From Patescibacteria group bacterium (GTDB lineage: Bacteria > Patescibacteriota > Saccharimonadia > CAILAD01 > BJGX01): a stretch of 64,000 nucleotides of DNA. The position numbers and the translations under genes are program-made. This document shows, one piece after another, positions 40,886-60,836 of the stretch. The stretch lies in contig JAPLVO010000012.1 of the NCBI GenBank assembly GCA_026397045.1, positions 10,654 to 74,653 on the forward strand, given 5' to 3'. The notes under the pieces were generated by a model, which did no database searches, was not told the DNA's origin, and saw only the letters and a list, made by a program, of their open reading frames with translations. Within the stretch, counting starts at the first letter, position 1, and each line of letters starts with the position of its first letter.

Positions 40886-40906
40886 AATAATAATAGGTAG
40901 CGAGGT

Positions 40907-41010: not shown

Positions 41011-41044
41011 GAGGCTAGTATATTTAGAGAGGTACACCAATACA

Positions 41045-41509: not shown

Positions 41510-41559
41510 GTTCCTGGCGCCTTAGCTTGTTGGCCCATAGTCGGGTATAATTAAAAACT

Positions 41560-43119: not shown

Positions 43120-43131
43120 TATAATTAAGCT

Positions 43132-44418: not shown

Positions 44419-44436
44419 TTAATAAAGGAGGTCCTC

Positions 44437-44793
44437 ATGATAAAGATCCAGCTAACAGGGCGTAAATTTGAGATTGAACCAGAAATCAAGAAGTATGTCG
44501 AGCGAAAGCTCGGAGGATTAGATAAATATTTGCCTCGCGGCCATATCAACCAGGGCATGAGCGTAGAAATATTAAAGGACCCATCAGGCAAGGAAGATAA
44601 TCGCTATAAGGTCATCGCCGTTCTAAAAGTGCAGGGGCCAGATCTAGTGGCCGAGACTGCCACCATAAACCCACATTCGGCCATTGATATCGTGGAACAA
44701 AAGTTAAAAATCCAAATACGGAAGTATAAGGAAAAGCAAAAACCTCGTCGCATCGGCATTAAAGAGCTGTTTGATAAAATCAGATCGCACTAA
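44437..44793 (+). CDS. hpf: Ribosome hibernation promoting factor (short HPF/RaiA)
   Basis: MIKIQLTGRKFEIEPEIKKYVERKL... Confidence 0.85.
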   Translation: MIKIQLTGRKFEIEPEIKKYVERKLGGLDKYLPRGHINQGMSVEILKDPSGKEDNRYKVIAVLKVQGPDLVAETATINPHSAIDIVEQKLKIQIRKYKEKQKPRRIGIKELFDKIRSH

Positions 44794-44820
44794 CCAAGCG
44801 ACTCCTGTATAATATAAATT

Positions 44821-47415
44821 ATGTCATTTATAACCAAAATATTTGGTGACCCAAACGAGCGGGAAATCAAAAAAGATCGATTAATAGTCGATAAGATTAA
44901 TGCCTTAGAAGCTAATACCAAAGCCCTGACTGATAAGCAGCTAACAGCCAAGACGGCTGAGTTTAAAAAGAGGCTTGGCAAACAGGAAACTCTGGATGAT
45001 ATCCTACCAGAAGCCTTTGCTGTAGTTCGTGAGGCTTCAAGGCGCCGGCTAGGCCAAAGACACTTCGATGTACAGCTCATCGGCGGGATTGTTTTGCATG
45101 AAGGTAAAATCGCCGAAATGCGTACTGGAGAGGGCAAGACCTTGGTTGCAACGCTAGCTTTGTATCTAAATGCCCTGGAAGGCAAGGGCGCTCATTTGGT
45201 TACCGTTAACGACTATTTGGCCAGGATCGGTGTAGGCTGGATGGGTGAAATATATCATTCTTTGGGGCTTTCTTCGGCCGTTGTTTTGCCACAGGGAGCA
45301 TTTTTGTTCGATCCAGACTTCAGCGACGAGTCCCACCACGATCCACGCCTATGGCACCTTAGGCCTATCACCAAGCAAGAGGCTTATCGAGCCGATATCA
45401 CTTATGGCACAAATAACGAGTATGGTTTTGATTACTTGCGCGATAATATGGTTTCGGATTTAGATCAATGTTCACAGCGAAAGCTAAACTATGCGATAGT
45501 CGACGAAGTAGATTCTATCTTGATAGATGAAGCCCGTACGCCACTTATTATTTCTCAGCCCGCAGGCAAAAGCACTGAGCGATATCAGTCTTTCGCTAAG
45601 CTCGCTACCAAACTCAAGCGGGATACAGATTACACCGTAGATGAAAAACAGAAGGCCGTGAGCCTAACCCCCAAAGGCATCACCCAGATAGAAGTCGATC
45701 TAGGTGTGGAAAATGTCTACGATGCCGAGCACATCGAATATGTACACCACATCGAGCAGAGTCTTAAGGCCGAGGCTTTATTCGTGAAAGACAAAGATTA
45801 TGTGGTTAGTGAGGGCGAGATAGTTATTGTCGATGAGTTCACCGGTAGGCTATTGGCAGGCCGTCGCTACTCGGAGGGTCTACACCAGGCTATTGAAGCC
45901 AAAGAAGGCGTGATTGTCCAGGCAGAATCCCAGACCTTAGCCACGATCACCTTCCAGAATTACTTCAGGCTTTACGGTAAGCTATCTGGGATGACAGGTA
46001 CTGCCCAGACCGAGGCCGAAGAGTTCGCAAAAATATACAAGCTCGAAGTTACCCGAATTCCTACCCATAGGACCATGATAAGAACCGACCTCAAAGACCG
46101 TATTTATAAATCCGAGGCTACCAAGTTTGCTGCTGTAGTTGAGGAAGTCAGGGTTAGGATCGCTAAAGGTCAGCCCGTACTGCTGGGTACTTCTAGTATT
46201 GAAAAGAACGAAATAATGAGCCAGCTACTATCTAAGGCGGGTATCGCCCATGAGCTACTAAATGCCAAAAACAATGAGAGAGAAGCCGAAATTGTGGCTT
46301 TGGCGGGCCAGCAAAAGTCTGTCACCTTGGCCACCAACATCGCAGGCCGCGGGACCGATATAGTGCTAGGCGAAGGAGTCAAGGAGCTAGGTGGGCTGCA
46401 TGTAATAGGCACAGAGCGCCATGAATCTAGGCGCATTGATAATCAGCTCCGGGGTAGGGCTGGGCGGCAGGGCGATCCAGGATCGAGCCAGTTTTTTGTT
46501 AGTGTTGAGGATGATCTTATGCGAATATTTGGTGGAGAACGAATTGGCTCACTGATGTCAGGCTTGAATTTGCCAGACGACATGCCAATAGAGAATAGTG
46601 TTATATCTAAGTCGCTCGAAACAGCTCAAAAACGAGTTGAGGGCCAGAACTTCGATGCCCGTAAGCATTTGGTGGAATACGATGATGTAATGAACTCCCA
46701 GCGCGAGATCATCTATGCCAAGCGCCGCAAGTACCTGGAGGGCAAGGACCTCAGAGCCGAAGCAGAGTCCATGTACTCGCAGGAGTTTGGCGATATCGTG
46801 AGCGCTAACACCAATCCCAAGACAGGCTCTGTGGATCTGGTTCAAGTTCAGGCATCGGCAGCTATGATTAGCCCCTTGCCAGACGATTGGTCCAGCAAAA
46901 TTGATACCAAAGTCCCGGATCTGATCACCAAAGACCTTGTGGCGAGAGTCGGAAATATCCTCGATCAGCGCGGAAAGGATGTCGGTGAAGATGTCCTGGC
47001 AGTTATCCTTAGGCTAGTTTTTTTAAGAACCATCGACAGTGCTTGGCTCGATCACCTCGAGACAATGGATCATCTGCGCGAGGGAATTGGTTTGCGCGGC
47101 TACGGCCAGCGCGACCCTCTTGTCGAATACAAGGCAGAGGCATTTGGGCTATTTACCAGGCTCCAGGCCTCGATTATTTCTGAAGTAGTTACCACTTTGC
47201 CGAAGGTAGATATACGCAAGCAGCCGGAGCATGCCGAGGCCGTTGATACCGAAATAACCTCAGGAGCCGAGATGGCTAATGCCAACATGGAGAGTTCCAT
47301 TAAAAAACAATCTCAAGCGGGTAATGTCAGGACTCAAATAAAGCGCCCCATCAGGCAGCCCGAATTAAAGCCTATGCGTAAAAAATCTAAAAACAAGAAA
47401 AAAAGGCGTAAATAG
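44821..47415 (+). CDS. secA: Preprotein translocase ATPase SecA; the C-terminus is basic and lacks the usual zinc-finger
   Basis: Full motor domains (DEAD-like NBDs, preprotein cross-linking domain). 864 aa ending in a KKSKNKKKRRK tail. Confidence 0.95.
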   Translation: MSFITKIFGDPNEREIKKDRLIVDKINALEANTKALTDKQLTAKTAEFKKRLGKQETLDDILPEAFAVVREASRRRLGQRHFDVQLIGGIVLHEGKIAEMRTGEGKTLVATLALYLNALEGKGAHLVTVNDYLARIGVGWMGEIYHSLGLSSAVVLPQGAFLFDPDFSDESHHDPRLWHLRPITKQEAYRADITYGTNNEYGFDYLRDNMVSDLDQCSQRKLNYAIVDEVDSILIDEARTPLIISQPAGKSTERYQSFAKLATKLKRDTDYTVDEKQKAVSLTPKGITQIEVDLGVENVYDAEHIEYVHHIEQSLKAEALFVKDKDYVVSEGEIVIVDEFTGRLLAGRRYSEGLHQAIEAKEGVIVQAESQTLATITFQNYFRLYGKLSGMTGTAQTEAEEFAKIYKLEVTRIPTHRTMIRTDLKDRIYKSEATKFAAVVEEVRVRIAKGQPVLLGTSSIEKNEIMSQLLSKAGIAHELLNAKNNEREAEIVALAGQQKSVTLATNIAGRGTDIVLGEGVKELGGLHVIGTERHESRRIDNQLRGRAGRQGDPGSSQFFVSVEDDLMRIFGGERIGSLMSGLNLPDDMPIENSVISKSLETAQKRVEGQNFDARKHLVEYDDVMNSQREIIYAKRRKYLEGKDLRAEAESMYSQEFGDIVSANTNPKTGSVDLVQVQASAAMISPLPDDWSSKIDTKVPDLITKDLVARVGNILDQRGKDVGEDVLAVILRLVFLRTIDSAWLDHLETMDHLREGIGLRGYGQRDPLVEYKAEAFGLFTRLQASIISEVVTTLPKVDIRKQPEHAEAVDTEITSGAEMANANMESSIKKQSQAGNVRTQIKRPIRQPELKPMRKKSKNKKKRRK

Positions 47416-47428
47416 CTCCTGATAGCTA

Positions 47429-47457
47429 TTGATTATTTATAAGGTATTTAGTATTAT
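47429..47457 (+). promoter_or_regulatory. Sigma70-like promoter of the accessory locus
   Basis: TTGATT, a 17-nt spacer, then TATTAT. Followed by SD AAGGAGGG before the 47483 ORF. Confidence 0.5.
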
Positions 47458-47482
47458 AAACATAACTACTTAAGGAGGGTTA

Positions 47483-47809
47483 ATGAAAGATAAAACTAAG
47501 GATAGGGTAAGTTCGGTTCAGCTCGAGATCTTCGCAGAAAACTTACTCGAAGAAAAGCCCCTCTATAATATCGACGAAGAAACTATTGTCCAGATGAGAG
47601 AGGACCTGGTAGATAGACTTGTCCAGGTTACCAATAAAACCATAGTCGAAAACATCCCTGCCGAAAAACTATTTGATTTTGAGAAGCTTATCGATTCCTC
47701 ACCCAAACCTTCCGAAATCCAGGCTTTTATCGAAGATAATGTTCCAGAGTTGGCACCAAAACTCACTGAAGCCTACTTTAATTTCCGTAAAATATACTTA
47801 GGTTTGTAA
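47483..47809 (+). CDS. Small acidic protein (108 aa) immediately upstream of the giant ORF. Chaperone-like by size and charge only.
   Basis: Strong SD and an acidic composition. The stop lies 12 nt before the giant ORF start. Confidence 0.5.
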   Translation: MKDKTKDRVSSVQLEIFAENLLEEKPLYNIDEETIVQMREDLVDRLVQVTNKTIVENIPAEKLFDFEKLIDSSPKPSEIQAFIEDNVPELAPKLTEAYFNFRKIYLGL

Positions 47810-47821
47810 GGTATAAGTATT

Positions 47822-50800
47822 TTGCCTAATAAACTCTCATCCCCCAGCCCCTCATATTCCAGCCCCTTATCTCCAAGTCCTTATGAGGGTCTCACCGGAA
47901 AATCTAAAGTTGGCAGCACGCCTTCACTTGACGGTATTACCCCTACAGCTCTGGGCAATCCCGACGGCAGCGATCTTGCAGGATCAACATCAGAAAAGCG
48001 ACCAGGGAGGCCACGGAAAGAACCAGCGAGGAGTTCTGATATAAAACGAATGCCCGAATGGAAGAATACCAACAAGTCCTCTACAGCCAGCCGTTCTTCT
48101 GCAGACGAACCCACGCCTCAGCGCAGTAAGCCAGAAGCTCCTGCACCTCAACCCAAAAAGCAAGAAGCTCTTGCACCCGAACCTGCCCCTGCACCCAGCC
48201 AGCCAGAAGCTCCCGCCCAGGCCGAACAGTCAGCTTCACCGCAGCTCCAAGCGCTGACGGAGCCAAGCCCAAGGGCTGATGAGACGATAGATGATTATTA
48301 CCAGCGGCTATTCGGCTTGAGTTTTGAAGAGGCCCAGGACCGTAAAGGGGATACAAATCTTTTGAGCCCGCAGCAGAAGGGTGCCTTGACAAGAGAACGC
48401 AACAGGCTCGATAAACATCTCCGCAGCCTAGACTCACAAGACAGCGATCTACCAGCTGCGGAAACCAAAAGGCTGCAAGACCTTAATTTCGTGCTGGAAA
48501 ATGCGCAGCCATTTGAACCTGGGAACAACGATGATCCGAATCTCAGATGGCGACTCCCCAGCCTCGCATCCGATAAAATGACGGTTCCTGATGCAACCTC
48601 CGAAACTAACGCCCCGACGCCAACTATCCTTGATCCGCTTACAGTAGCTGACGCTCTAGAAAGCCCGTATACAAGCCTCATAGAATCACTTAGCTTAGAG
48701 CTCGACAGCAGTGAAACCGTCGTCATTGCGGGCCAATCATACAATAAAGGCGATACCGTGTTCTATACTTCAGGTGCAGGCAATGAGGGTGAATATTTCG
48801 TTTTGACAAATACGATTGCAGACCCCCCAGGGTTGGTTTTGCAAAATGTGGAAACGGAACTTGTTTTTGCAATTTCTGGCGATACGGACCCTGCTATGCT
48901 CCGCCCCGGCTCGATTGCTAGTCCTGCTGTAGCGCCCACAGGCGAACCTGCGCTAAATTTCAGGCCATACGACGAAACCGATCCGGTCCTGGGTGGCGGC
49001 ATGGATTCGGAAACCTATAGATTTGATGATATCAAAGATCCAGCCAAGCCTCCTACTGAGGGCCCCATCGATAATCCTCCACAGGAACCAGTTGAAGAGC
49101 CTGAGCCTCCTTCGCCGTCCCCAGACCAAGGGCCTATCATATTGTACTCATTGGACACCACTGAAACAGACAAGGCCTTGTCCTTATTGAAAGCAGATGA
49201 GCAGGTAGATAAAGAGCTTCAGGAAATTCGAAAGGAACTGTTTGAGCCAAAAAACCCATCAGACAGCAGATTCGCAAGGCTGGTTCAGACAGCAGCAAAA
49301 GGGGTTAGATCGACATTTCGTCATCCAATTAAGGCTTTTAAATATATAGCCAGAAGCACAGTAACCAGAGAAGCCACCCGGCAGAGATACGCGAAAGGGC
49401 ACCTAGAAGCCTCCGAAGGAGTCGATTTCCACGACGCTTTAGCTGGGGATGTGGCTAAGCGATTAGACCTTGGGGAGGACTTCTTGCAAAATGGCGAAAG
49501 ACTGCTCGGCGAAGACAACTCTGAAGTCAGAGCAGTTAAGGACGCTTTGAATGTAGTTTTTCAGCAGGGTATTGAAGGAACTACAGACAGGGATTCCACA
49601 CTCAATGACGCCAGGCGTATATTGGCAGAAGCCCCCTGGCTAAAAGGAGGTTCCGATCAAGAAGTCCACATGCTTAAAAATCTTGAAGAGATGTACGATA
49701 GGATAACCATCGCCGTCGAGCACGAATCTGGGCTTGCCGCTATCGATGCCGCCTATCAGCTTAAAGGTGGCGAAGTCACACTTGGCGTAAACTCCGAAGC
49801 CCACAAGACAGCCACAGATAGAATTATGGAAAAACTCACCAATAGTCGGTTCAAAGCCTTGATAGTAAATGAGGCAACAATAGCTATAGCAGTAGGAGTA
49901 GTTGTTAATACGGCAGGTTACCTGGCTCGTAGCAAAGGATCTAGGTATGTCGCGGGGGCGCTGGTAGGTGGTCCTGTCGGTATCGCCTTAGTTGCAGGCT
50001 CAGCTGGTTTGTTTGCCGCGGCGAGAGAACGCACCACCTTGCGCCAAGAGCGGGCCTTAAGAATGTATCAGATAGCCTCGGGCCAATCCGAAGTAGCCAA
50101 TGACAGCGATACGGCTCCTCGATCTACCGAAGTCGATGCCTCACTCTACGAAATGGTATCTGCCAGAGATGTACTCGATGACTTCTCCAGATTAACACCG
50201 GATGATCCGGCGACCTTATCATCATCCGAGGCCAGAGAAATTCTAGCAAGTTTGGTTGCCCTCAGAACCAATCAGAGTATCGGCGACGAATCTTCGATAG
50301 ATCTAATAAAGTATTCCTCCGAGGACATGATTGAGTCCGAAAAGTCGTTATTGATGGTGGCTAGAGCCGAAGCTGAAATATTACTCAGAAATTACTATTC
50401 CAACCATCCAGATGAATTGCCAAATATTGCAGGCAGAAATTTTGATGAAAAAATCGCTGCACTTACGGAACTATCCAAGGCGGACTTAAGCTCTAATGAG
50501 ATAACCGACAGAGACAAAGTTTTCGGTAAGCTAACCAGGAAGCGGGCATTTATGAGGGGTCTTGCTACTGCTGGCTTCGCAGGTGCTGGTAGCTATATAT
50601 CGGCACAGATGAGCGAGCATTTTAGCCATCAAATTGATGGTAAAACTGTTACAGCAGGCAATCTGGCCAATGACCCCACCACCTATAGTTTTAAGGGGGA
50701 CACAATAAATATGCCTAAAGGGTATACGATACAAGGCACCTCGATTCTGGATGGAAATGGCAAACATATTGTGGACGGGCTAGTGCCGAAGGCCGATGGC

Positions 50801-53029
50801 GGGTTATCGCCAGAAAGTATCGCGCTACTAGATGCTAAGGGAATAGGGGTCGAGCAAACAGTCGTGATGCATGATTTTGTATCTACCAGAGAGGTGTCTT
50901 ACGATGAGTTTGTTAGGCTTAAACCCGAAAGGTTCCAGCAAATTTCAAGAGAAGTATGGAAAAATAACGACACAACTAGATTTGATCTTAATGAGCTTAG
51001 GGGGGATTTCAAACTTTCCGAAAATGGCGATATAGTTGTAGCCACCAACCGGCTCACCGACACGGGCTCGTTTGGCCAGGGCGAAAGCGTGGCGGCACAT
51101 TCCGAGCAGCTAGCGGGGCGGCTTAAAATATTAATGACACCAGATAAGGGCAACCAGAGCTCGGCAGTTGTCCTAGATGTCTCCCCCGATGGTACAACCG
51201 TAATACCTAAGGGTTCGGATCTTTATAACTTATTTAAGGTAGATCCAACTGCCACTGGTATTGGTCAAGTTAAGCTGGATTCGGGGTTTTTAGAAATAGC
51301 AACCCCGGGTGGACCAACCGCCGATGGATCCCAAAGCTTTCAAATACTTGCTACTCAGGTCGGTAATAACCCTCCTGGCACTGTATTAATAACAGAAAAT
51401 ATCAGTACGCCAGTGTACCAAACTACTCTGCTTGTTCCAAAAGAGACCTATATTCCAGGCAGCGACTTCCGAGCGCCTTTTATACCTATCGCAGCGCCAT
51501 TGCCTCGTAGGCCATTAGACGAAGTTATCCCTCGTGGTGTCCATGAACCATATTTGGAGTCTCCATATTTTGGATATCAGTCTGGCGAGTTTAGCCCTGA
51601 AGACGAAGATCGGATACATAGGCGTTTCTCAGAACGGTTACGCAATAATCCCGATGCTGTACTTGATCCTCGAGAGGAGATTGAGGGCTATTTAGCTGGT
51701 ATGGATCCGGAGCGCAGAGAAGCGCTGGAAGATTTAGCCGAGCAGACCGAGGCTATGAGTAATACTTGCGAAATAGCTGTAGCAATCCCGGTTAATGGTG
51801 CTCAGGAAGGTAAGAATATTTACAAAACATTACAATGGTATTCTAAACAACTAGATACAGAAGGTAACCCTCTAGATCCTGGGAAATTTGAGATTGTGTT
51901 GTTTGTAAATAAGCCTACCGACTTAGAGTGGGATGAAACATTAAGCGAAATTGAAAGATTTAAGTCCCAATATCCGAATGTTCCGATCAGGGTGATTCAA
52001 CGAGAGTATCCACCCGAGCAAGCAAGAATAGGTAGAATTAGGAGAGACATGACCGACTTAACACTCTTGCGCCAGAGTAGACGCACGGTCGATCAGGATT
52101 TAGTCGTGGTTAGTAACGATGCTGATTGCAAAGGTTTGGGCGCTTCCTACATAGCAACAATACTAGAACAAACCGAGGTACAGGCCGCCGATGGTCTGTC
52201 GGGGCGCTTAGAATGGGACCCCACTACAAATATAGAGTCCCCGTTGTATCATATGGGCGTTAAGTTCATGCAGATGCTCGATCTTATCGATAGACATCCG
52301 TCGCCAGGCTCGGGGAGGCAGGCTAGGTATCGTTACCCTGGCGCTAACTTCGCATTTAAAGCTTCAATGTATGCTGGCGTTGGTGGATACGATGAGGGTA
52401 GCGTTAAGGCCGAAGATGTCGTGCTTGGGAGGACAATTAAGATGGCCCGCCGTGGCTCTGATAAGTTTACTGGAGTTGGATTTTATGGAGGGGACAATGT
52501 TGTTTATACTGATTCCAGACGAGGTATAACTGTTTTCAACCAGGGATATCCGCCAGCAGCTCAATGGTCGAAGCTCAGCTTTGGACCTAAGGATGCCGCT
52601 CGCGAAGGAGCGGAGATAGAGGATGGTATAAATTACGATCTACTTTTAAGCGAAGAGCCCAGGCTGATTAATAAAACTCGCCAAAAAAGAGCACGAAGGC
52701 TATTTGAAGCTGAGCTATCGAGGTTTATAGAACAAACACTTGAGGAGTATCGCATTATATCCGACAACACCACCTACCATGAAGGCATGCGTATGCCAAC
52801 TGATGTAGAAATAGCTGGTAGGGCGGTGGAGGCCATGCGAATAGATGCGACTATAGAGGTTTCGAACGGTGAAGTAAGAGTTTCAGTTGTTGATGCTTCT
52901 AAGCTATATAGCTACCTCCGCGGTTATCGTAAATCTGGATTGCGCAATTATATGGCCCGAACTGATCTCGGAAGAGTTTTTTCTGGCGGAATCAATGAAG
53001 TCTTCCCCGATCTTGAAGCTGCGGCTTAA
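47822..53029 (+). CDS. Giant (1735 aa) multi-domain protein: disordered Pro/Ser/Ala-rich N-terminus, two central TM helices, C-terminal GT-A-like glycosyltransferase domain
   Basis: Uninterrupted 5.2-kb ORF with a TTG start. The N-terminal ~330 aa are low-complexity (SPSPSYSSPLSPSP, PEAPAPQP repeats, GRPRK). A hydrophobic pair lies at about residues 690-735 (IAIAVGVVVNTAGYL ... ALVGGPVGIALVAGSAGLFAAA). The C-terminal region has a GT-A pattern: IAVAIPVNG ... FEIVLFVNK ... IRVIQRE ... DLVVVSNDADC. Confidence 0.65.
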   Translation: MPNKLSSPSPSYSSPLSPSPYEGLTGKSKVGSTPSLDGITPTALGNPDGSDLAGSTSEKRPGRPRKEPARSSDIKRMPEWKNTNKSSTASRSSADEPTPQRSKPEAPAPQPKKQEALAPEPAPAPSQPEAPAQAEQSASPQLQALTEPSPRADETIDDYYQRLFGLSFEEAQDRKGDTNLLSPQQKGALTRERNRLDKHLRSLDSQDSDLPAAETKRLQDLNFVLENAQPFEPGNNDDPNLRWRLPSLASDKMTVPDATSETNAPTPTILDPLTVADALESPYTSLIESLSLELDSSETVVIAGQSYNKGDTVFYTSGAGNEGEYFVLTNTIADPPGLVLQNVETELVFAISGDTDPAMLRPGSIASPAVAPTGEPALNFRPYDETDPVLGGGMDSETYRFDDIKDPAKPPTEGPIDNPPQEPVEEPEPPSPSPDQGPIILYSLDTTETDKALSLLKADEQVDKELQEIRKELFEPKNPSDSRFARLVQTAAKGVRSTFRHPIKAFKYIARSTVTREATRQRYAKGHLEASEGVDFHDALAGDVAKRLDLGEDFLQNGERLLGEDNSEVRAVKDALNVVFQQGIEGTTDRDSTLNDARRILAEAPWLKGGSDQEVHMLKNLEEMYDRITIAVEHESGLAAIDAAYQLKGGEVTLGVNSEAHKTATDRIMEKLTNSRFKALIVNEATIAIAVGVVVNTAGYLARSKGSRYVAGALVGGPVGIALVAGSAGLFAAARERTTLRQERALRMYQIASGQSEVANDSDTAPRSTEVDASLYEMVSARDVLDDFSRLTPDDPATLSSSEAREILASLVALRTNQSIGDESSIDLIKYSSEDMIESEKSLLMVARAEAEILLRNYYSNHPDELPNIAGRNFDEKIAALTELSKADLSSNEITDRDKVFGKLTRKRAFMRGLATAGFAGAGSYISAQMSEHFSHQIDGKTVTAGNLANDPTTYSFKGDTINMPKGYTIQGTSILDGNGKHIVDGLVPKADGGLSPESIALLDAKGIGVEQTVVMHDFVSTREVSYDEFVRLKPERFQQISREVWKNNDTTRFDLNELRGDFKLSENGDIVVATNRLTDTGSFGQGESVAAHSEQLAGRLKILMTPDKGNQSSAVVLDVSPDGTTVIPKGSDLYNLFKVDPTATGIGQVKLDSGFLEIATPGGPTADGSQSFQILATQVGNNPPGTVLITENISTPVYQTTLLVPKETYIPGSDFRAPFIPIAAPLPRRPLDEVIPRGVHEPYLESPYFGYQSGEFSPEDEDRIHRRFSERLRNNPDAVLDPREEIEGYLAGMDPERREALEDLAEQTEAMSNTCEIAVAIPVNGAQEGKNIYKTLQWYSKQLDTEGNPLDPGKFEIVLFVNKPTDLEWDETLSEIERFKSQYPNVPIRVIQREYPPEQARIGRIRRDMTDLTLLRQSRRTVDQDLVVVSNDADCKGLGASYIATILEQTEVQAADGLSGRLEWDPTTNIESPLYHMGVKFMQMLDLIDRHPSPGSGRQARYRYPGANFAFKASMYAGVGGYDEGSVKAEDVVLGRTIKMARRGSDKFTGVGFYGGDNVVYTDSRRGITVFNQGYPPAAQWSKLSFGPKDAAREGAEIEDGINYDLLLSEEPRLINKTRQKRARRLFEAELSRFIEQTLEEYRIISDNTTYHEGMRMPTDVEIAGRAVEAMRIDATIEVSNGEVRVSVVDASKLYSYLRGYRKSGLRNYMARTDLGRVFSGGINEVFPDLEAAA

Positions 53030-53055
53030 ACACAAGCTTTATCCTAACAAAACTA

Positions 53056-53084
53056 TTGACAAAATGCTTATTTTATAGTATCTT
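53056..53084 (+). promoter_or_regulatory. Sigma70-like promoter at the left edge of the GC-rich island
   Basis: TTGACA, a 17-nt spacer, then TATCTT. Followed by SD AAAGGAGGG. Confidence 0.45.
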
Positions 53085-53141
53085 TGCAAATGATTCCCGT
53101 AAATCGCGGGAGTAGTAGTTTTTTAGAAAGGAGGGCCAGTG

Positions 53142-53729
53142 ATGGCCCGTACGTCAAAAGAAGTCGATGCTCTCCTAGGAGAGCTAGAAGACGCGGCAGC
53201 GCGTCATCATAGTGCACTGCTTGCGCAGTGCGCCGTGGACGACGAGGTTGAAAGGAGGTTCGACCGAGTTTTGAGTCTCTACGAGAGGCTCACCGCTAGG
53301 ATCGGGGGGCTGGCCGACCAGCACGATGCCACCGTACAGCGTGTTAACCGGCTTGAAAAAAGGGTTGACACGCTCAGCAACCCTCTTTTTACGCTGCTGA
53401 TTGGGGTGGCGGCTGTGGCTGGCTGGCTTTTCCTCAGCCTGTGGATCAAGTCCACAGTTGGCAACAACGCCCGGGTGTGGATGGACGGCCAAGAAATTCT
53501 TTGGCGGGACCACCCGCAGTTTGATGCATTAACGGGCAATATCATCGGTGGAGGCGTAGCCTTCATAGTTGGTATGACCGTAGTTTGCTTGATCATCGAT
53601 TTGATGAGTAACAGCAATCCGCAACCAAAACGCCAAAACCCGCCTGCCGTGGCGGTGGAGGAAGAACAGGTTCAACAGCCTGTCCGGGCCTTGCCCAGTC
53701 CGGCCAACGCCGGCCAGCTTAACCCGTGA
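53142..53729 (+). CDS. GC-rich island gene 1: membrane protein with a cytoplasmic coiled-coil N-terminus and two TM helices
   Basis: High-GC codon usage contrasting with its neighbours. An ATG 6 nt after the SD (the ORF track starts at the GTG at 53139). Followed by a GGTGCGTGC/GCACGCACC hairpin at 53737-53771. Confidence 0.55.
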   Translation: MARTSKEVDALLGELEDAAARHHSALLAQCAVDDEVERRFDRVLSLYERLTARIGGLADQHDATVQRVNRLEKRVDTLSNPLFTLLIGVAAVAGWLFLSLWIKSTVGNNARVWMDGQEILWRDHPQFDALTGNIIGGGVAFIVGMTVVCLIIDLMSNSNPQPKRQNPPAVAVEEEQVQQPVRALPSPANAGQLNP

Positions 53730-53888
53730 ACGGCACTGGTGCGTGCAGGGGGATTTATCCCTCCGCACGCACCACAACTTTTTGAACCAACTGCATTGTT
53801 ATCAGGTCTATAGGACAACCTGGTGGCAAGTAGGTGTTTCTAAAACACATTTTCCAATGTCCCCTTGCTCTCGAAAGGAGCTAGTACC

Positions 53889-54893
53889 ATGACATCAAAG
53901 AAGAGAACCCTGTTTGGGGTTATGGGTGGTTTTATCTTCGTTTTGTTTTTCCTGTTGTTCCTTTTAGGGGGCAATGGGCAGGCAACGCCTACAACAACCA
54001 CCACCACAACGGTATTGCCGGGGGAGTGCACCAGCCAGGTGCATTACTTCCGGCACGACTTGCCAGCCGAAGTGAACCATTTCGGCCCGGCTGCGCCGGA
54101 CGGTGATGTCCAGCAGGTCCTTGCGGACCTACACAACCGGATCTGCGTCGATCCGGCGCTGACGATGGCACTCCGTCAGTACTCTGATCGCCAGTATACC
54201 TCTCCGGAGGAACGACTGGCGATCACTGAAGGGCTCGTAGCCAACCGAGAGGCTTGGGCATTAAATGTCCTTGCTATCGAGGGCCGCCAGGCCACGGCCG
54301 TGAAGGTGGAGATTGTGAAGATGAGCGAGCCTTACCGCACGCTCTACATGGTCAACACCCCTATCCCCGGTATCTACCAAGATGCCGTGGACCGGCCGGA
54401 GTATCGTGTGCTTAGATTCACCTACGCCGATGGTTATGTCGATAACTACAAGCTCGATTGCGGGTATCAACCCGTCGAGCCTGTTTTTGCCGGCATTCCA
54501 GGCCCGCCGCCGACAACGGCGCCAGGAAAAGGTGGAAAGGTCACGCCAAGTGGCCCAAACCCACCACCGCCTGGCCCGCCACCGACAACGGCACCGCCGA
54601 CCACGGCACCACCGACCACTTGCCCGCCCACGGTGTGCAAAGGGCCGGATACCGCCCCCGCAGCCTGCATCGACAATGTCGGTGTAAGCTGTACTGGGAT
54701 TCCGGGGTCAGGTGGCTCCCCCGGCAACGGTGGAGCAATCAACCACGGAAATGATGGCTATTCGCCATCAGATCCGCCGCCGCCCACCTGGGTGGCACCG
54801 GCGCCGGTGCCAACTTCGGTGGTGGCTCTGCCATCGACAACGGCACCGCCACCACCGACCCAGAACCTCAGTCCGGGAGATATCCCGGGCTGA
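53889..54893 (+). CDS. GC-rich island gene 2: secreted or anchored Pro/Thr-rich, Cys-containing protein
   Basis: SD AAGGAG 10 nt before the ATG at 53889 (the ORF track starts at 53865). N-terminal hydrophobic segment, a poly-Thr run, PPTTAPPTTAPPTTCPPTVC repeats, and GC-rich third codon positions. Confidence 0.55.
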   Translation: MTSKKRTLFGVMGGFIFVLFFLLFLLGGNGQATPTTTTTTTVLPGECTSQVHYFRHDLPAEVNHFGPAAPDGDVQQVLADLHNRICVDPALTMALRQYSDRQYTSPEERLAITEGLVANREAWALNVLAIEGRQATAVKVEIVKMSEPYRTLYMVNTPIPGIYQDAVDRPEYRVLRFTYADGYVDNYKLDCGYQPVEPVFAGIPGPPPTTAPGKGGKVTPSGPNPPPPGPPPTTAPPTTAPPTTCPPTVCKGPDTAPAACIDNVGVSCTGIPGSGGSPGNGGAINHGNDGYSPSDPPPPTWVAPAPVPTSVVALPSTTAPPPPTQNLSPGDIPG

Positions 54894-54896
54894 GAA

Positions 54897-54928
54897 CCCG
54901 GTGGCTGAGGGGTAAAACCCTCAGCCAC
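54897..54928 (+). terminator. Perfect 12-bp inverted repeat hairpin closing the GC-rich island (I-shaped, no U-tract)
   Basis: GGTGGCTGAGGG-GTAAAA-CCCTCAGCCACC, followed by two further small hairpins. Confidence 0.5.
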
Positions 54929-55016
54929 CAACCCAAATTTCAAACTTGAACTCAGCTTGAGGGCTATCTGAGTTCAGGGTTGAATCCCTGCTAAAAAGCT
55001 AATGGTATAAATAGTA

Positions 55017-55045
55017 TTGACATATCTAACAAAAAGTGGTATTAT
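55017..55045 (+). promoter_or_regulatory. Sigma70-like promoter upstream of the LPXTG protein gene
   Basis: TTGACA, a 17-nt spacer, then TATTAT. Confidence 0.45.
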
Positions 55046-55163
55046 TCATTACCGTACATAGCCTTTGATCATTGAAAGCCAAATATCGCTAGAACTATCA
55101 TTCCTGACAGAACCGTCCCTATAAATATTATTTAATTAATCTTGTTTTAAAAGGAGTAAACTT

Positions 55164-56888
55164 ATGAAACTTAAAGCATTTGCAAAATTGGCAATACTTT
55201 CCGCAGCTATAGTGGCTGCTGTAATTGCGCCAATAACCGCAATAGCTGGATATGAGCCTGCCAACAGGCCCACTAAGACCTACGCTGGTCCTAGTACTCC
55301 AGCTTTTGACTACCCAGTATTTAATTCTTGGGTTAACACACCAAATTATGGTGATGAGCGAGCATTTTTTGACGCTGGCAATCAGACAAGCGGACCTTAT
55401 AAAGATCAGCTTGCTGTAGCTCCGGGCCAAGAAATCACCTTGCGTATGTATATTCACAACGGTGCGGCCCCAGGGCTTAATGGCACCAATTTAAATGGTC
55501 CAGGTGTTGCTAAGAACGCCCGTGTGCAAGTGTTCTTGCCTACTGCGACCTCGACTCAGCTTAGAAGCTTTGGCTATATCGTCGCCGATAATACCAACCC
55601 AGGCTGGGTAGCTGATTCAGTTGATTTCAACTCAGCTGTCCCCGTAAACATGGAATTTGTTAAGGGCTCAGCTCGATTAGCAAATGGCGCCAACCCTAAC
55701 GGTGTTGTGCTTCCAGATAGCATCGTGAATACCAACAACCAATTTAATGCCAACAGCCCTTCGGCTCCAATTGGCTATCAGACCATGAACGGTCTATTCC
55801 CAGGATGTTTCGAATTTGATGCCTTCGTAACCTTGAAGGTTAAGATCAACGGCCCTAGTCTTGCAGTTCAGAAAAAGGTAACCACTCCTGGCTCAACAAA
55901 CTGGCAAGAAAACCTTGATGTTAATTTCAACGATTCGAGTTCTACCCCTACCACTAGTTGGTTGGTGGAGTACAAGAATACCGGAACAACCATGATCACT
56001 AATGGTGTGGTACGAGACACCTTGCCTGCTAATTTGAAATTAGTTCCAGGCTCAGTGATGAACTTCGATGGTAACCACCCGCAAGGTATTGCAGTCGCCG
56101 ATAATGGCCTGTTTGCAGGCGGTGTGGGCGTGGGTAATATCGCTGCAGGCTCTAACGGCTTCTTCCGATTTAGAACAACCGTAGCAACCCCTTTTACCCC
56201 GAAAGAATGTGGAACCAAGAAGATAGTAAACACTGCACAGGCCGAAGCATCGGGTGTGGCAGTTATAAATGACACTGCTAGCGTAACAGCCACTAAAGAT
56301 ACTAACTGCGAAGTGCCTTCGGGCTTAATTTGTAAGAATCTTGATGTGACACTTTCGCCAGCAGATGCGATACTACCAAATAAGCCTACTTTTGTAGGCA
56401 CATCCGAGAAATCTGGTGCCGGTGCAATCAGCCCTTCAAAATATGAATATCATATTTCTAAGGTTACTGGCGAAACTGCAGTACCAATGCCTAATAGCCC
56501 AGTAGTGAGTGAATCTACCGAATTGACAAACACTGTCAAGGAAGCATATACATTCACTGAGGCTGGCGACTATAGGGTAGAGCTGAAGGTATTTGACAAG
56601 GAAGGTAAGCAGATCCAATCTGCCCCAGCTTGTAGCAAGAACTTTACATTAAGTGATGTTCCAGTACCTCCAGTACCTCCAGTACCTCCAGAACCACCAG
56701 TTCCTCCAGTTCCTCCAGTACCTTCAGTGAATCCGACTACTCCTGCTGTGGCTACTTTGCCAGAGACAGGTGTCGAGGCCGGTCTTGTAGGTGTGATAGG
56801 TTCTAGCGCGATGGCTATCGGTGCTCTAAAGTATCGAAAAAGCAGGAAGGATGTCATTGACGCCCTTTCCAAGGCTAGTAAACGCTAA
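55164..56888 (+). CDS. LPXTG-anchored cell-wall surface protein with DUF11-type repeat domains and a (PVP)n stalk
   Basis: N-terminal signal peptide; DUF11-like segments (V..DTLPANLKLVPGSV, LVEYKNTGTT); a C-terminal PVPPVPPVPPEPPVPPVPPVPS stalk; then LPETG, a hydrophobic stretch and a KYRKSRK sorting signal. Confidence 0.8.
   Translation: MKLKAFAKLAILSAAIVAAVIAPITAIAGYEPANRPTKTYAGPSTPAFDYPVFNSWVNTPNYGDERAFFDAGNQTSGPYKDQLAVAPGQEITLRMYIHNGAAPGLNGTNLNGPGVAKNARVQVFLPTATSTQLRSFGYIVADNTNPGWVADSVDFNSAVPVNMEFVKGSARLANGANPNGVVLPDSIVNTNNQFNANSPSAPIGYQTMNGLFPGCFEFDAFVTLKVKINGPSLAVQKKVTTPGSTNWQENLDVNFNDSSSTPTTSWLVEYKNTGTTMITNGVVRDTLPANLKLVPGSVMNFDGNHPQGIAVADNGLFAGGVGVGNIAAGSNGFFRFRTTVATPFTPKECGTKKIVNTAQAEASGVAVINDTASVTATKDTNCEVPSGLICKNLDVTLSPADAILPNKPTFVGTSEKSGAGAISPSKYEYHISKVTGETAVPMPNSPVVSESTELTNTVKEAYTFTEAGDYRVELKVFDKEGKQIQSAPACSKNFTLSDVPVPPVPPVPPEPPVPPVPPVPSVNPTTPAVATLPETGVEAGLVGVIGSSAMAIGALKYRKSRKDVIDALSKASKR
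56661..56723 (+). repeat. Seven tandem copies of a 9-bp unit (CCAGTACCT and variants) encoding the (PVP)n stalk
   Basis: Direct tandem repeat visible in the sequence, inside the LPXTG protein gene. Confidence 0.8.
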
Positions 56889-56900
56889 AAACTAAATAAT

Positions 56901-56930
56901 AAAAAAGACCTCTCAGGAGGTCTTTTTTAT
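56901..56930 (+). terminator. Rho-independent terminator after the LPXTG gene
   Basis: AGACCTC-TCAG-GAGGTCT stem-loop followed by TTTTTT. Confidence 0.85.
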
Positions 56931-56959
56931 TATCTGGCAATAAAGGCTATAATAGAATA

Positions 56960-58045
56960 ATGAAACAAATCTACGAACAATTATTAGAGCTGCAAAGCAA
57001 AATCGATGAAGCAATTAGCAAGCTTGGCTTGGATCAAGATAGGCTTAAGCTAGCTGAATTAGAAAAAGATATGTCTGATCCGAATCTGTGGAATGATCAA
57101 TCTAGGGCCGAAACTATAACCAAACAATCGGCTGGGCTAAAGCAGTATTTGGCTAGCTGGGATGATATCAGTAGTGATATCAAAACCACCATTGAATTGC
57201 TGGAGGTCTCAGACGATAGCGAGCAGGCCGAATACCAGGCCATAGCAGACGATATATCAAGACGAGCCGAAAAGCTACTTATCACAGTAAAGCTAAGCGG
57301 AAAGCACGATAAGTATCCTGCCATCATGCAGCTCTCGGCTGGGGTTGGAGGAACAGATGCCGCCGACTGGACAGCGATGCTAGAGCGAATGTACTTGAGA
57401 TTCGCTGAAGTATCTGGGCTGAGTGCCGAATTACTAGACGAAAGCGTGGGGGATGAGGCTGGCATAAAAAGCGCTACTATTCGCTTTAGTGGGCCGTTTG
57501 CTTATGGTAAGTTGCGATCCGAGAAGGGCGTTCACCGGCTAGTTAGGCTAAGTCCGTTTAATTCGGGCAACTTGCGTCAGACTTCCTTTGCTTTGGTTGA
57601 TGTAATACCCGAGCTTGCCGAATCAGAAGTTAAAATCGCAGATAAAGACCTCAAGATTGATACCTACCGTAGTAGCGGGAATGGCGGCCAGAGTGTTAAC
57701 ACCACCGATAGTGCGGTGCGCATAACGCACATTCCCACAGGCACTGTGGTGGCGATTCAAAACGAGCGTTCGCAATTAAAAAACAAACAGCGGGCCATGA
57801 GTATTTTGGCTAGTCGTCTGGCCGAGCTAGCCCGCGTACAACGGCTTGATGACATTAGCCTGCTGAAGGGCTCAAACAAGTCGGCCGATTGGGGTAGCCA
57901 GATCCGATCCTATGTATTGCACCCTTATCAGAAGGTCAAAGACCATCGCAGCGGCTACGAGACCAGCGATACCCAATCGGTGCTGGACGGTAATATTGAG
58001 GCATTGATAGAAGCATATTTGGTTAGCCAGGTAGGTAAGGATTAG
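56960..58045 (+). CDS. prfB: Peptide chain release factor 2, encoded in a single frame with no programmed +1 frameshift
   Basis: SPF tripeptide and the GGQ motif. The region homologous to the E. coli frameshift site (KLGLDQD) is in frame with no UGA. TATAAT 10 nt before the ATG. Confidence 0.9.
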   Translation: MKQIYEQLLELQSKIDEAISKLGLDQDRLKLAELEKDMSDPNLWNDQSRAETITKQSAGLKQYLASWDDISSDIKTTIELLEVSDDSEQAEYQAIADDISRRAEKLLITVKLSGKHDKYPAIMQLSAGVGGTDAADWTAMLERMYLRFAEVSGLSAELLDESVGDEAGIKSATIRFSGPFAYGKLRSEKGVHRLVRLSPFNSGNLRQTSFALVDVIPELAESEVKIADKDLKIDTYRSSGNGGQSVNTTDSAVRITHIPTGTVVAIQNERSQLKNKQRAMSILASRLAELARVQRLDDISLLKGSNKSADWGSQIRSYVLHPYQKVKDHRSGYETSDTQSVLDGNIEALIEAYLVSQVGKD

Positions 58046-58084: not shown

Positions 58085-58765
58085 ATGATTTTACTCGACC
58101 GAGTTACCGTCATCTATCCAAATAAAACGGTGGCGCTGTCAGGCGCTTCACTACACATTCAGCCAAAAGAATTTGTTACTATCGTTGGGCCATCAGGTGC
58201 TGGCAAAAGCACGCTTATAAGGCTCCTCATCAAAGAGGAAGTGCCAACTTCTGGCAAGATAATTGTTGGTAGTATTGATTACGACACCATAGATAGATCC
58301 AATATTCCTCATTTGCGTCGTCGCATCGGAGTTGTGTTCCAGGATTTTAAGTTATTGCCCAATCTTACTGTTTATGAAAATGTATCGTTCGCGCTAGAGG
58401 TGTCGGGAGTGCGTAGCAGCGAGATAAAACGCGCTGTGCCAAAGATCCTACAGCTGGTCGGCTTGAGTGAAAAAGCCCATCACTACCCAGGCGAGATTTC
58501 TGGGGGCGAGAAACAGCGAACTGCAATTGCTCGTGCCTTGGTGCGCAATCCCAAGATTCTAATCGCCGATGAGCCGACAGGCAATCTTGATCCCAAAAAC
58601 TCCTGGGATATCATAGAGCTTTTGCTGAAGATCAATCGATTCGGTACGACCGTAGTTTTGACAACTCATAACAAAGAAATAGTCGACGCCCTTAAAAAAC
58701 GAGTCATAACCATCAATAGGGGCCGAGTGGTTAAGGATGAAAAAGTTGGGAAGTACAGCTTATGA
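58085..58765 (+). CDS. ftsE: Cell-division ABC ATPase FtsE
   Basis: Walker A GPSGAGKST, signature ISGGEKQRTAIARA, Walker B ILIADEPT. Adjacent to ftsX. Confidence 0.9.
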   Translation: MILLDRVTVIYPNKTVALSGASLHIQPKEFVTIVGPSGAGKSTLIRLLIKEEVPTSGKIIVGSIDYDTIDRSNIPHLRRRIGVVFQDFKLLPNLTVYENVSFALEVSGVRSSEIKRAVPKILQLVGLSEKAHHYPGEISGGEKQRTAIARALVRNPKILIADEPTGNLDPKNSWDIIELLLKINRFGTTVVLTTHNKEIVDALKKRVITINRGRVVKDEKVGKYSL

Positions 58766-59676
58766 TTACATTTTGGAGGGTATTAAAGAGCGGTTTTAGA
58801 AACACTTTCAGAAATGCCTGGCTAAGTAGCGCAGCCACATTGGTGATGGCAGTAACCCTGCTTATCATGATCTTCTTCACATTTTCCATATTTTTTGTGC
58901 AAACTCAGCTCAAGGAGGTTCGCCAAAAAATCGACCTAACTCTATTTATAGCCGATGAAGCCAACGAGGATCAGATCCTATCCCTGCAGAATAAAGTTCT
59001 TCAGACCCAAGGCGTTAGCTCTGTCGAGTTTGTATCTAAAGCCGATGCCCTCAAAAAGCTCGAAAACAGCAGTGAGGAAGGTAAGAAACTCGCCAAGTCG
59101 GCTCTCGAGATAGGCAATCCCTTGCCTTCTTCCCTGGAAGTCAAATTGAATCAGCTCGATAACATCGCCGAAGTCAATAAAACAATTCGCAGCCTTCCCG
59201 AGGCCAAGATAATTAGCGAAACCAGCCTCGATAGCAGGGACGAGAATCGCCAGGGAGTGATAGAGAGTGTAATCCGTATCAGCAACGGGGTTACGCGTGT
59301 CGGCGCAGTGCTTAGTGCCGTGTTTTTACTAATCGCCTTAATGATAATATTTAACACCGTCAGAATGGCCATATTCACTCGTAGAGAAGAAATCGAAATT
59401 ATGAAGTTGGTTGGTGCCACCAAGTGGTTTATTAGGGGTCCATTTATTGTTGAGGGTTCGATGTATGGGGTGTTTGGGGCAACAGTAGCAGCTATTTCCA
59501 TTATCCCCATCAGCCGAGCAGCATCGCAGTTCTTAGTGGAAAAGTTCAACGCCGCCTCGACAGTAACATATTTTGGCAATAACTTCCTCTTAATTATTCT
59601 AGCAATGTACGGCCTCGGCATACTAATAGGGGCAATATCTAGCTGGCTGGCAATATCGAGGCATCTGAAACTCTAA
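58762..59676 (+). CDS. ftsX: Cell-division permease FtsX
   Basis: 4-TM topology with a large first extracellular loop and a C-terminal FtsX domain. Overlaps the ftsE stop. Confidence 0.85.
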   Translation: MITFWRVLKSGFRNTFRNAWLSSAATLVMAVTLLIMIFFTFSIFFVQTQLKEVRQKIDLTLFIADEANEDQILSLQNKVLQTQGVSSVEFVSKADALKKLENSSEEGKKLAKSALEIGNPLPSSLEVKLNQLDNIAEVNKTIRSLPEAKIISETSLDSRDENRQGVIESVIRISNGVTRVGAVLSAVFLLIALMIIFNTVRMAIFTRREEIEIMKLVGATKWFIRGPFIVEGSMYGVFGATVAAISIIPISRAASQFLVEKFNAASTVTYFGNNFLLIILAMYGLGILIGAISSWLAISRHLKL

Positions 59677-59732
59677 AAGCTCTCGTATTTTTCAATATTA
59701 TGTGCTATAATAGTTATGTTTTAAGGAGGGTG

Positions 59733-60836
59733 ATGAAAGCAAATAAAATCAAAATAAGTATTGGTGCCTGTCTCACAATTTTTGCCTTTATGGCCTCATC
59801 ATTTGTGATACTTTCGCCACTAGTCGCCAAGGCTAGTCCTATAGATGAACAAATCGCAGCCCTCAATAAAAAGGTCCAAGAAGCCTCTGCCGTCGCGGAC
59901 AGTAAAAAATCCGAAGCCGACACCTTAAAAGGCAAGCTAGCTAGTATTGAAGCCGAAATCAGCGCGGCCCAGGAGCAGCTTAATTTGACTGCTCTGGAAA
60001 TAAAGCGCACCCAAGCCAATATCGATGAGTCTAATCGCGAAATGGAAAAGCAAAAACTTATCCTCCGCGATAATCTTAGAATGATCTACAAGAGCGGCAG
60101 TATATCGCCGATCGAAGTGGTGGCTTCCAGCAAAAACCTCAGCGACTTCGTGGCACAGCAGCAGTATTTGGACGCCATAAAGCGCAAAGTTGATGACAAC
60201 CTAAACAAAATAGAGCAACTTAAAAAAGATCTAGATGCCAAAAAGGGCCAGCTCACTGCTCAGTCTAGCGAGCAAGAGCGGACTGTAGCTGGGATTGCAG
60301 CAAAGCGATCTGAGCAACAGAGCTTGCTGGATAGGACCCAAGGCGAGGAGTCTAACTTCCGTAAAGTTATCGCCGAGGATACCGAAAAGATCAAGGGCTT
60401 AAGGCGCCAGCAGGCCGCCATAATATCCTCGTATTCGACCAATGTCCGCTATGGTGGCACTGGCGACTACAAATGGGCAAATGCGCCTTGGCCTAATGAA
60501 ACTGCTGACGACTATGGTATGTTTCGTCGCCAATGTGTTAGCTACACAGCCTGGAAGGTAGATAACTCCGGAAGCAATATGCCCAGATGGGGTGGCAGGG
60601 GCAATGCAAATCAGTGGGATGATAACGCCCGCGCAGCTGGAATACCAGTCGATGGTAATCCTAGGGTTGGCGATGTGGCCATTAATGACTCTGGGTACTA
60701 TGGGCATGCCATGTATGTCGAAGCTATTCTGGGCAATGGTAAAGTGCGAGTTAGCCAATATAATGCTGGCAACGACGGAAATTATAGCGAAAGCGATGTC
60801 GGTATTAGCAACCTACAGTTTATACACTTTCCGTAA
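59733..60836 (+). CDS. Secreted coiled-coil plus CHAP-domain peptidoglycan hydrolase (PcsB-like, FtsEX-associated)
   Basis: Signal peptide, a coiled coil of about 200 aa, and a C-terminal CHAP with catalytic Cys (RRQCVSYTAWKV) and His (GHAMYVE). Start chosen at the ATG after SD AAGGAGGG (the ORF track starts at 59700). Confidence 0.75.
   Translation: MKANKIKISIGACLTIFAFMASSFVILSPLVAKASPIDEQIAALNKKVQEASAVADSKKSEADTLKGKLASIEAEISAAQEQLNLTALEIKRTQANIDESNREMEKQKLILRDNLRMIYKSGSISPIEVVASSKNLSDFVAQQQYLDAIKRKVDDNLNKIEQLKKDLDAKKGQLTAQSSEQERTVAGIAAKRSEQQSLLDRTQGEESNFRKVIAEDTEKIKGLRRQQAAIISSYSTNVRYGGTGDYKWANAPWPNETADDYGMFRRQCVSYTAWKVDNSGSNMPRWGGRGNANQWDDNARAAGIPVDGNPRVGDVAINDSGYYGHAMYVEAILGNGKVRVSQYNAGNDGNYSESDVGISNLQFIHFP

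Follow-up and report, generated by a model that had tools for sequence, protein, structure and literature searches.

We have analysed a stretch of 64,000 nucleotides (the window) from a Patescibacteria group bacterium of the Saccharimonadia lineage (contig JAPLVO010000012.1 of assembly GCA_026397045.1, positions 10,654 to 74,653 of the forward strand), and in particular the interval of 9.5 kb which lies between secA and prfB. This interval contains five open reading frames (ORFs), all of them on the plus strand. They may be divided in two modules: module A is formed by orf108, coding for a small acidic protein, and by the gene of a giant protein of 1735 amino acids with a putative glycosyltransferase (GT) domain, while module B is formed by orf196, orf342 and an LPETG/DUF11 gene, whose products would be membrane and wall-anchored surface proteins. 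Our interpretation, held with moderate confidence, is that this block is a clade-conserved envelope gene cluster of freshwater Saccharimonadia with a recombination-driven hypervariable core, its role in the envelope being a putative one.

An initial annotation of this stretch placed the end of secA at 47415 and the start of prfB at 56960, about 9.5 kb apart, and these coordinates are correct. The small acidic ORF, the 1735-aa protein, the pair of genes rich in G+C at third codon positions (GC3) and the LPETG/DUF11 protein that it described have all been confirmed by ORF, composition and motif checks.

The block in related genomes

The nearest relatives of secA are found in metagenome-assembled genomes (MAGs) of Saccharimonadia and Patescibacteria, the best one being a Lake Mendota MAG with 86% identity. 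An identical copy of the giant protein, annotated as hypothetical, is found in an NCBI MAG named 'Patescibacteria group bacterium'. The adjacency of secA and prfB in other bacteria, noted in the initial annotation, is real: it is found in 11 of the 80 secA loci that we fetched, from several phyla, where prfB starts about 150–450 bp past the secA match. In Saccharibacteria both genes are syntenic, not adjacent. The arrangements found are shown in Table 1. In the distant Saccharibacteria L002, L011 and L015, the gap holds the M16-like peptidase gene alone. Neither this gene nor the FKBP gene which flanks the block in L091 was found within the 64-kb window.

Table 1. Arrangement of the secA-prfB junction in related loci
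Locus	Gene arrangement	secA-prfB interval
L002, L011, L015	serS-hpf-secA-[430-aa M16-like peptidase gene]-prfB-ftsEX	1.4 kb
L008	M16-like gene and about 7 kb of other genes	8.4 kb
L061	Metabolic genes	3.3 kb
L088, L091	orf108-like, giant (1822 aa), 1–3 extra genes, orf196-like, orf342-like, LPXTG protein, then prfB-ftsE-ftsX; in L091 the left neighbour of the block is an FKBP gene, not secA	
L099, L101	secA-orf108-giant	
L094 (651-kb contig, housekeeping genes about 77% identical)	greA-lysS-serS-hpf-secA-[182]-[218]-[305]-LPXTG-prfB	4.2 kb

The block is present at the same place in the conspecific contigs L081, L154 and L084; in L081 and L154, secA is 99% identical to ours at the amino acid level. 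All five genes are found in the same order in L088 and L091, whose prfB and ftsE are 69% and 94–95% identical to those of the window. The block is therefore old and clade-conserved, and the proposal of an inserted accessory block is correct only in part: the block is neither strain-specific nor a recent insertion. The interval is filled differently across Saccharibacteria, as expected from that proposal, yet the five genes keep their order in species with such a divergent prfB. Three distal genes are kept in L094, where orf108 and the giant gene are both absent. The position of prfB is conserved in all related lineages (synteny in L088, L091, L094, L096 and L154). The block has a firmer link with prfB than with secA, and its content varies between lineages.

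The extra genes of L088 (positions 5695–7575, coding for 193, 119 and 284 aa) and L091 (6439–7416, 325 aa) lie between the giant and the orf196-like gene. They are acidic, of low complexity and GC3-rich (0.55–0.63), except for the 193-aa gene (0.43). The 284-aa and 325-aa proteins are 46% identical. In L094, the ORF directly after secA (7287–7835) codes for 182 aa rich in Ser and Pro and carries the motif RRRGRPK. Its similarity to the N-terminus of the giant is very weak (E 0.004–0.7), and it may be a remnant of this N-terminus. The serS gene of the window (43132–44418) shows only 34% identity with that of the closest MAG (L001, 2533–3771), though secA is 86% and greA, lysS and hpf are 77–80% identical. 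Identity of serS is also low in L015 (34%) and L006 (40%). Two serS types appear to be in circulation among Saccharimonadia, and this suggests gene displacement.

A mosaic between strains

Three independent contigs of the same species, from another sampling project, allow a comparison within the species: L081, L082 and L154. The genes greA, lysS, serS, hpf, secA and orf108 are 99–100% identical among conspecific contigs, and DNA identity is 98.9% over positions 40823–48636 of the window (BLAST). Up to 51519, DNA identity is 97–100%. Over the GT domain (51550–52900), it is 40–64%, with 44–46% identity for the protein. Values of 85–92% are found at about 53050, 44–71% in orf196 (43–53% for the protein, L081 and L082 versions) and 80–96% in orf342 (82% for the protein, which is 54–58% identical in L088 and L091). 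From 55110, DNA identity is 99–100%, and the products of the LPXTG gene and prfB are 99% and 100% identical. The left breakpoint is sharp: the high-identity BLAST block stops at 51519, no more than 2 nt from where the PFIP...PRRPL motif of the giant protein ends. The right limit of the hypervariable core is approximate, between 54740 and 55110.

Two haplotypes are found. The first one is present in L084/L085 and the NCBI MAG, the second one in L081, L082 and L154. They are not chimeras, because each of them recurs in independent assemblies. In L154 the giant gene appears to be split (246 + 1453 aa), but this is due to a run of N at a gap of the scaffold, and we have rejected the idea of a pseudogene.

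The divergent alleles are not restricted to one species. With respect to the window, secA of L099 and L101 is 62–78% identical and the middle region of the giant 40–56%, yet the GT domain reaches 67–72%, as compared with 44% in conspecific strains: GT alleles cross species boundaries. The transmembrane (TM) region of the window orf196 is closer to L088 and L091 than to the conspecific versions. L081 and L082 have one GT allele in common and differ in the N-terminal third of orf196. At least three mosaic forms of orf196 are found among conspecific contigs.

The giant protein and orf108

The C-terminal domain of the giant protein presents a GT-A, Rossmann-like fold in an AlphaFold2 (AF2) model obtained with a 23-sequence alignment (predicted local distance difference test, pLDDT, 80.8; predicted template modelling score, pTM, 0.82). 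Both aspartates of the DxD motif (D1433 and D1435, in SNDADC) are invariant among these 23 sequences, which have 31–73% identity, and an E-D pair (E1531/D1532; E/D317–318) is nearly invariant. Judged by its sequence, the domain is a family of its own. Neither a GT profile (best E 0.31, to 6yv7) nor a profile of the middle region of the giant gave a significant match with PDB sequences, and no glycosylating toxin is found among the top 60 matches of the GT-domain model.

An exhaustive search with residues 1200–1735 of the giant gave 1067 cluster representatives at E<=1e-3, of which 231 also pass E<=1e-30. With few exceptions, the representatives of this family are 1000–2900 aa long, and one cluster is named Candidatus Sungbacteria. 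A word-indexed search with the full protein gave only 4 proteins: the low-complexity N-terminus probably filled the candidate list. The giant has no Pfam, NCBIfam or PHROG match at E<=0.01, and neither a signal peptide nor a known trafficking domain was found with Pfam, NCBIfam and hydropathy. We have found no description of DUF5663, of the giant family or of this locus in the literature.

Residues 440–1240 are homologous across the family. Their AF2 model has a pLDDT of 65 and a pTM of 0.33; the region of the membrane hairpin is helical, with low confidence. The PFIPxxxPLPRRPLE linker, which precedes the GT domain, is left disordered by AF2. The N-terminal region is about 38% identical, over 125–156 aa, to that of L088 and L091. 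It contains an AT-hook-like sequence, RPGRPRK, at residues 60–66 (47999–48019), and an in-frame indel of 255 bp (85 codons, around 48637–48886), which is present in the window and absent in the conspecific L081. In one member of the family, P0094 (1737 aa), the GT domain is followed, on its C-terminal side, by a Ser/Thr protein kinase domain (Pfam 1.9e-20). Therefore, some giant-family members combine two enzymatic modules.

The product of orf108 is weakly DUF5663-like (Pfam PF18908, E 0.084). It is 100% identical in L081 and 63–65% identical in L091, L099 and L101. A scan of JGI metagenomes for the giant family gave 56 loci, 44 of them with a visible 5' end. In 34 of these 44 loci the giant is directly preceded by an orf108-like ORF, and two or three such ORFs are found in L083 and L146/L147. 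Downstream genes are not conserved family-wide; in L083, L108 and L140 there are sortase genes nearby.

Module B and codon composition

The five block proteins gave a single match in Pfam, NCBIfam and PHROG scans: TIGR01451 (NCBIfam 'DUF11 type repeat'), which is found in the 574-aa protein with 29.5 bits for a cut-off of 24. The Pfam models are below their thresholds in this protein (DUF11 15.5 versus 24.6, Gram_pos_anchor 14.6 versus 20). Its N-terminus, MKLKAFAKLAILSAAIVAAV..., is hydrophobic and reads as a signal peptide. Its C-terminus is LPETG-VEAGLVGVIGSSAMAIGAL-KYRKSRK, with LPETG at 56757–56771. There are 64 homologues, many of them with a PF01345 or DUF11/LPXTG annotation. A PKD-like segment (about residues 386–515) is an addition which is absent in relatives of 447–459 aa. 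A tandem repeat with a 9-nt unit (56652–56745) codes for the (PVP)n stalk of the protein. The protein is 99% identical in another strain, L093, where it has 571 aa instead of 574; this fits a change in the number of repeats.

According to hydropathy, the orf196 protein has a coiled-coil-like N-terminal segment, two TM helices and a Pro/Gln-rich tail. The orf342 protein has an N-terminal membrane anchor, a Thr run, a globular part which contains Cys and a Pro/Thr-rich tail; none of its 35 homologues is annotated. Neither the orf342 protein nor the LPXTG protein has a significant match among PDB sequences.

The GC3 values of orf196 and orf342 are 0.629 and 0.636 (z = +5.2 and +5.3), as compared with a mean of 0.452 (sd 0.034) in the 46 other genes of the window. 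The anomaly sits in the codons, beyond the amino acid content. This agrees with the description of the pair as compositionally foreign, but the same excess is found in every related lineage examined: the counterparts in L081, L082, L088, L091 and L094 have GC3 values of 0.60–0.69, versus 0.32–0.52 in their flanks. A recent foreign origin is unlikely for this reason, and the excess appears to be long-standing, not the mark of a fresh import. A GC-rich host as the source of the pair was also considered and rejected: a search with orf342 gave only proteins of 193–371 aa from metagenomes and MAGs, none of them actinobacterial. As ideas for the origin of this excess, we may suggest that biased gene conversion acts on a hot spot of recombination, or that a GC-richer pool of alleles has been the source of repeated re-imports. 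Outside the block, the highest GC3 is found in the ORF at 37621–38418 (0.549, z = 2.8).

Layout of the locus

The features of the locus are shown in Table 2.

Table 2. Features of the secA-prfB region (positions in the window)
Feature	Position	Strand	Evidence
secA (left flank)	44821–47415	+	ORF; Pfam SecA_DEAD 2e-121
Promoter-like site, precedes orf108	47429–47457		Consensus scan
orf108, small acidic protein	47483–47809	+	ORF; 22 D+E vs 14 K+R
Giant 1735-aa protein, TTG start	47822–53029	+	ORF; NCBI MAG locus tag NT111_02490, annotated hypothetical
Giant, N-terminal Pro/Ser/Ala-rich low-complexity region, residues 1–439	47822–49138	+	Sequence
Giant, membrane hairpin (two adjacent hydrophobic helices), residues 677–734	49850–50023	+	Hydropathy; within helical region, residues about 440–935
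Giant, beta-rich domain, residues about 953–1204	50678–51433	+	AF2 pLDDT 70–87; motifs such as WYDNDT..FDKNEL conserved in alignment A3
Giant, Pro-rich linker PFIPIAAPLPRRPL, residues 1219–1232	51476–51517	+	Family-wide motif PFIPxxxPLPRRPL(E), consensus of alignments A1 and A3
Hypervariable core: GT domain and C-terminal tail, orf196, orf342	51520–55000	+	DNA identity profile, BLAST blocks
Giant, predicted GT-A fold, GT2-like glycosyltransferase domain, residues about 1259–1619	51596–52678	+	AF2 model, motifs
Promoter-like site, precedes orf196, directly upstream of the next hairpin	53056–53084	+	Consensus scan
Terminator-like hairpin 3' of the giant gene	53093–53113	+	Consensus scan only
orf196	53139–53729	+	ORF
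orf342	53865–54893	+	ORF; later start codon chosen by gene callers gives 334 aa
Best promoter-like site of the region	55017–55045	+	TTGACA-17-TATTAT with upstream TG; 11/12 consensus matches
574-aa LPETG/DUF11 protein	55164–56888	+	ORF
Intrinsic terminator at the right end of the block	56894–56935		17-bp perfect hairpin then U-run; -23.3 kcal/mol, z = -9.3
prfB (release factor 2, RF2; right flank)	56960–58045	+	PCRF and RF-1 Pfam domains; SPF and GGQ motifs

The terminator reported at the right edge of the block has been confirmed and is a strong one; it is symmetric and could serve either strand. A promoter had been claimed for each unit. Matches to the consensus are indeed present ahead of orf108, orf196 and the LPXTG gene, the last one 119 nt upstream of the gene, but 26 matches are found in the region versus 18.9 +/- 4.2 in shuffled sequence, so these sites are weak evidence. 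A GC-rich inverted repeat of 18 bp (53737–53774) is found 8 nt 3' of the orf196 stop. It has no clear U-run and may act as a terminator or as a regulatory hairpin within the variable core. The block has no Rfam match.

Many bacteria have a programmed +1 frameshift site in prfB. This site is absent here: the gene is a single unbroken ORF of 361 aa, with SPF at residue 198 and GGQ at 242. It is followed, at 58085–60836, by ftsE-ftsX, a CHAP / PcsB-like coiled-coil gene and an S41 peptidase gene, an order which is kept in all related loci and resembles the streptococcal FtsEX-PcsB arrangement.

Interpretation and alternatives

In an envelope cluster of this kind, the putative GT domain would face the cytoplasm at the membrane. 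It would take the sugar of a nucleotide sugar and transfer it to a precursor of the envelope, which might be a wall glycopolymer, a lipid-linked intermediate or a Thr/Pro-rich surface protein. Homologous recombination would have swapped about 3.5 kb within the species for a deeply divergent allele, anchored on the left by the DNA coding for the PFIP...PRRPL motif and on the right by the region upstream of the LPXTG gene. The swapped segment carries the predicted catalytic domain, which we take as the specificity-bearing one, together with orf196 and orf342. Different surface glycan and protein variants between strains would be the likely effect, and phage pressure and an arms race with the host bacterium would maintain them. 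Like other Patescibacteria, Saccharibacteria are found attached to bacterial hosts. Specific defences of the hosts against Saccharibacteria have been described, and evasion would be favoured by them (PMC13622651).

The description as a hypervariable surface or host-interaction locus, already made in the initial annotation, agrees with the envelope proteins and the variable core of the block; a role in host interaction would be a putative one. Several points weigh against our interpretation. The Pfam GT2 models remain far under threshold in the giant (PF13641, Glyco_tranf_2_3, 12.4 bits versus a cut-off of 27). Genes for sugar-nucleotide synthesis, flippases or wall polymers were found neither in the block nor elsewhere in the window, and no sortase gene was found within the 64-kb window. 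We infer the enzymatic activity of the putative GT, its acceptor, its topology and the selective agent. The topology of the giant is taken from hydropathy, and its hairpin is modelled with low confidence. A Foldseek search of its middle region against PDB gave no match with E<0.05: for these 800 or so residues no fold could be recognised, and most of the protein is thus left without an explanation. Downstream genes vary across the giant family, and for this reason any functional tie between both modules is a putative one. Finally, the term hypervariable is based on two haplotypes or populations within the species and on allele sharing across species.

The first alternative is a neutral mosaic: DNA of a divergent relative was imported once by chance, in genes with ordinary housekeeping envelope functions and with no diversifying selection. 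Only two haplotypes have been recovered within the species, the catalytic residues are conserved in both of them, and the breakpoints lie where conserved sequence permits recombination anyway, all of which could be expected from such an event. A single import does not account so well for a divergence which is limited to surface and catalytic parts, with surroundings about 99% identical, for the mosaic forms of orf196 or for the types of GT domain and orf196 that cross species boundaries. The content of the junction also varies by lineage (additional genes are found in L088 and L091, and the giant has been lost in L094), and the GC3 anomaly appears in every lineage examined. We consider this explanation possible, though unlikely.

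A bolder proposal, to which we give somewhat less credit, is that orf108 and the giant form an undescribed host-interaction device, common to Patescibacteria. The giant would be either anchored in the membrane or delivered. Its GT cassette would be exchanged between lineages at a dedicated linker, and would either act on the host or write a strain-specific glycan code which decides the engagement of hosts and phages; the GC3-rich genes would then be a hot spot shaped by biased gene conversion.

The giant might also be a polymorphic effector or toxin, delivered to hosts or competitors, with the swappable GT domain as toxic tip, orf108 as adaptor or chaperone and orf196 as immunity protein. The sharp breakpoint of the C-terminal domain just past a family-wide motif, the diversification of orf196, which is the next gene downstream, the small helical acidic ORF which nearly always precedes the giant, in two or three copies in some loci, and the additional enzymatic domain of members such as P0094 are all reminiscent of such systems, and effector delivery is plausible given an epibiotic lifestyle. 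Nevertheless, polymorphic toxins carry unrelated tips, and here the same GT domain is found at this position in more than 1000 representatives, with a co-conserved middle region. The giant has no detected secretion signal or trafficking domain, the supposed immunity protein is a two-TM membrane protein whose downstream position is not kept across the family at large, L081 and L082 combine the same GT allele with a different N-terminal third of orf196, and there are no orphan tip/immunity cassettes. The motif at the breakpoint may be a mere linker which gives recombination a foothold. This explanation is improbable, more so than the previous one.

The last alternative, a genomic island or mobile element recently acquired between secA and prfB, is largely refuted and very improbable: the adjacency of both genes in many phyla, a block without housekeeping genes and absent in distant Saccharibacteria, and the atypical GC3 of two of its genes would agree with it, but the block is found in all conspecific assemblies and, with its five genes in order, in species whose prfB is about 69% identical, its first two genes are a gene pair widespread in Patescibacteria, its GC3 anomaly is ancient and common to relatives, secA and prfB are normally at least one M16-like gene apart in Saccharibacteria, domain, tRNA and repeat scans found no integrase, transposase, tRNA or flanking repeat in the block, and no viral relatives were found in IMG/VR and PHROG.

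To our knowledge, very little is known about the surface molecules which set the host range of Saccharibacteria, their phage sensitivity and their evasion of host defences. This locus is a concrete, testable candidate: the envelope cluster is conserved, and only its enzymatic tip and its membrane proteins set apart strains which are otherwise identical. A large family without annotation is also defined by this locus, with a giant GT2-like protein, a small partner gene and more than 1000 cluster representatives, in Saccharimonadia and Sungbacteria. The inheritance of a GC3-rich gene pair across species would make a clean case in which to test biased gene conversion in bacteria.

Comparison with known systems

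The 574-aa protein resembles the LPXTG-anchored DUF11/TIGR01451 proteins of monoderm bacteria: it has a signal peptide and the sorting signal LPETG, and its DUF11-type repeat scores higher than the cut-off of NCBIfam. It differs from them in its scores under the Pfam DUF11 and Gram_pos_anchor thresholds, in its PKD-like segment and in the lack of a sortase gene in the window.

Some features of the giant recall CdiA-CT/CdiI, Rhs and LXG toxins, the latter with small helical partner proteins: a C-terminal domain replaced past a conserved motif, a variable downstream gene and one or more small helical ORFs upstream. On the other hand, all members have one family of tip domain, with no trafficking domain and with a fold that matches biosynthetic GT2 enzymes, and the coupling between the downstream gene and the tip allele is not strict.

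Wall-teichoic-acid glycosyltransferases, such as TarS and TarP of S. aureus or RmlT of Listeria, are also strain-variable. They are soluble proteins of 300–600 aa whose variation is the presence or absence of the whole gene, and TarP is prophage-borne. Here, the predicted catalytic domain is a cassette in a membrane-anchored protein of 1735 aa, with about 1200 residues of unassigned function and a small partner gene; a link with teichoic acids would be by analogy.

There is also a similarity in organisation with O-antigen and capsule loci and with the 'flexible genomic islands' of aquatic bacteria, which are variable segments between core genes, with GTs and surface proteins, divergent alleles in near-identical strains and atypical composition. 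Genes for nucleotide-sugar synthesis, flippases and polymerases are not found here. In this locus, what varies is a protein domain together with two genes for membrane proteins, and the shift in composition is an upward one in GC3, inherited across species.

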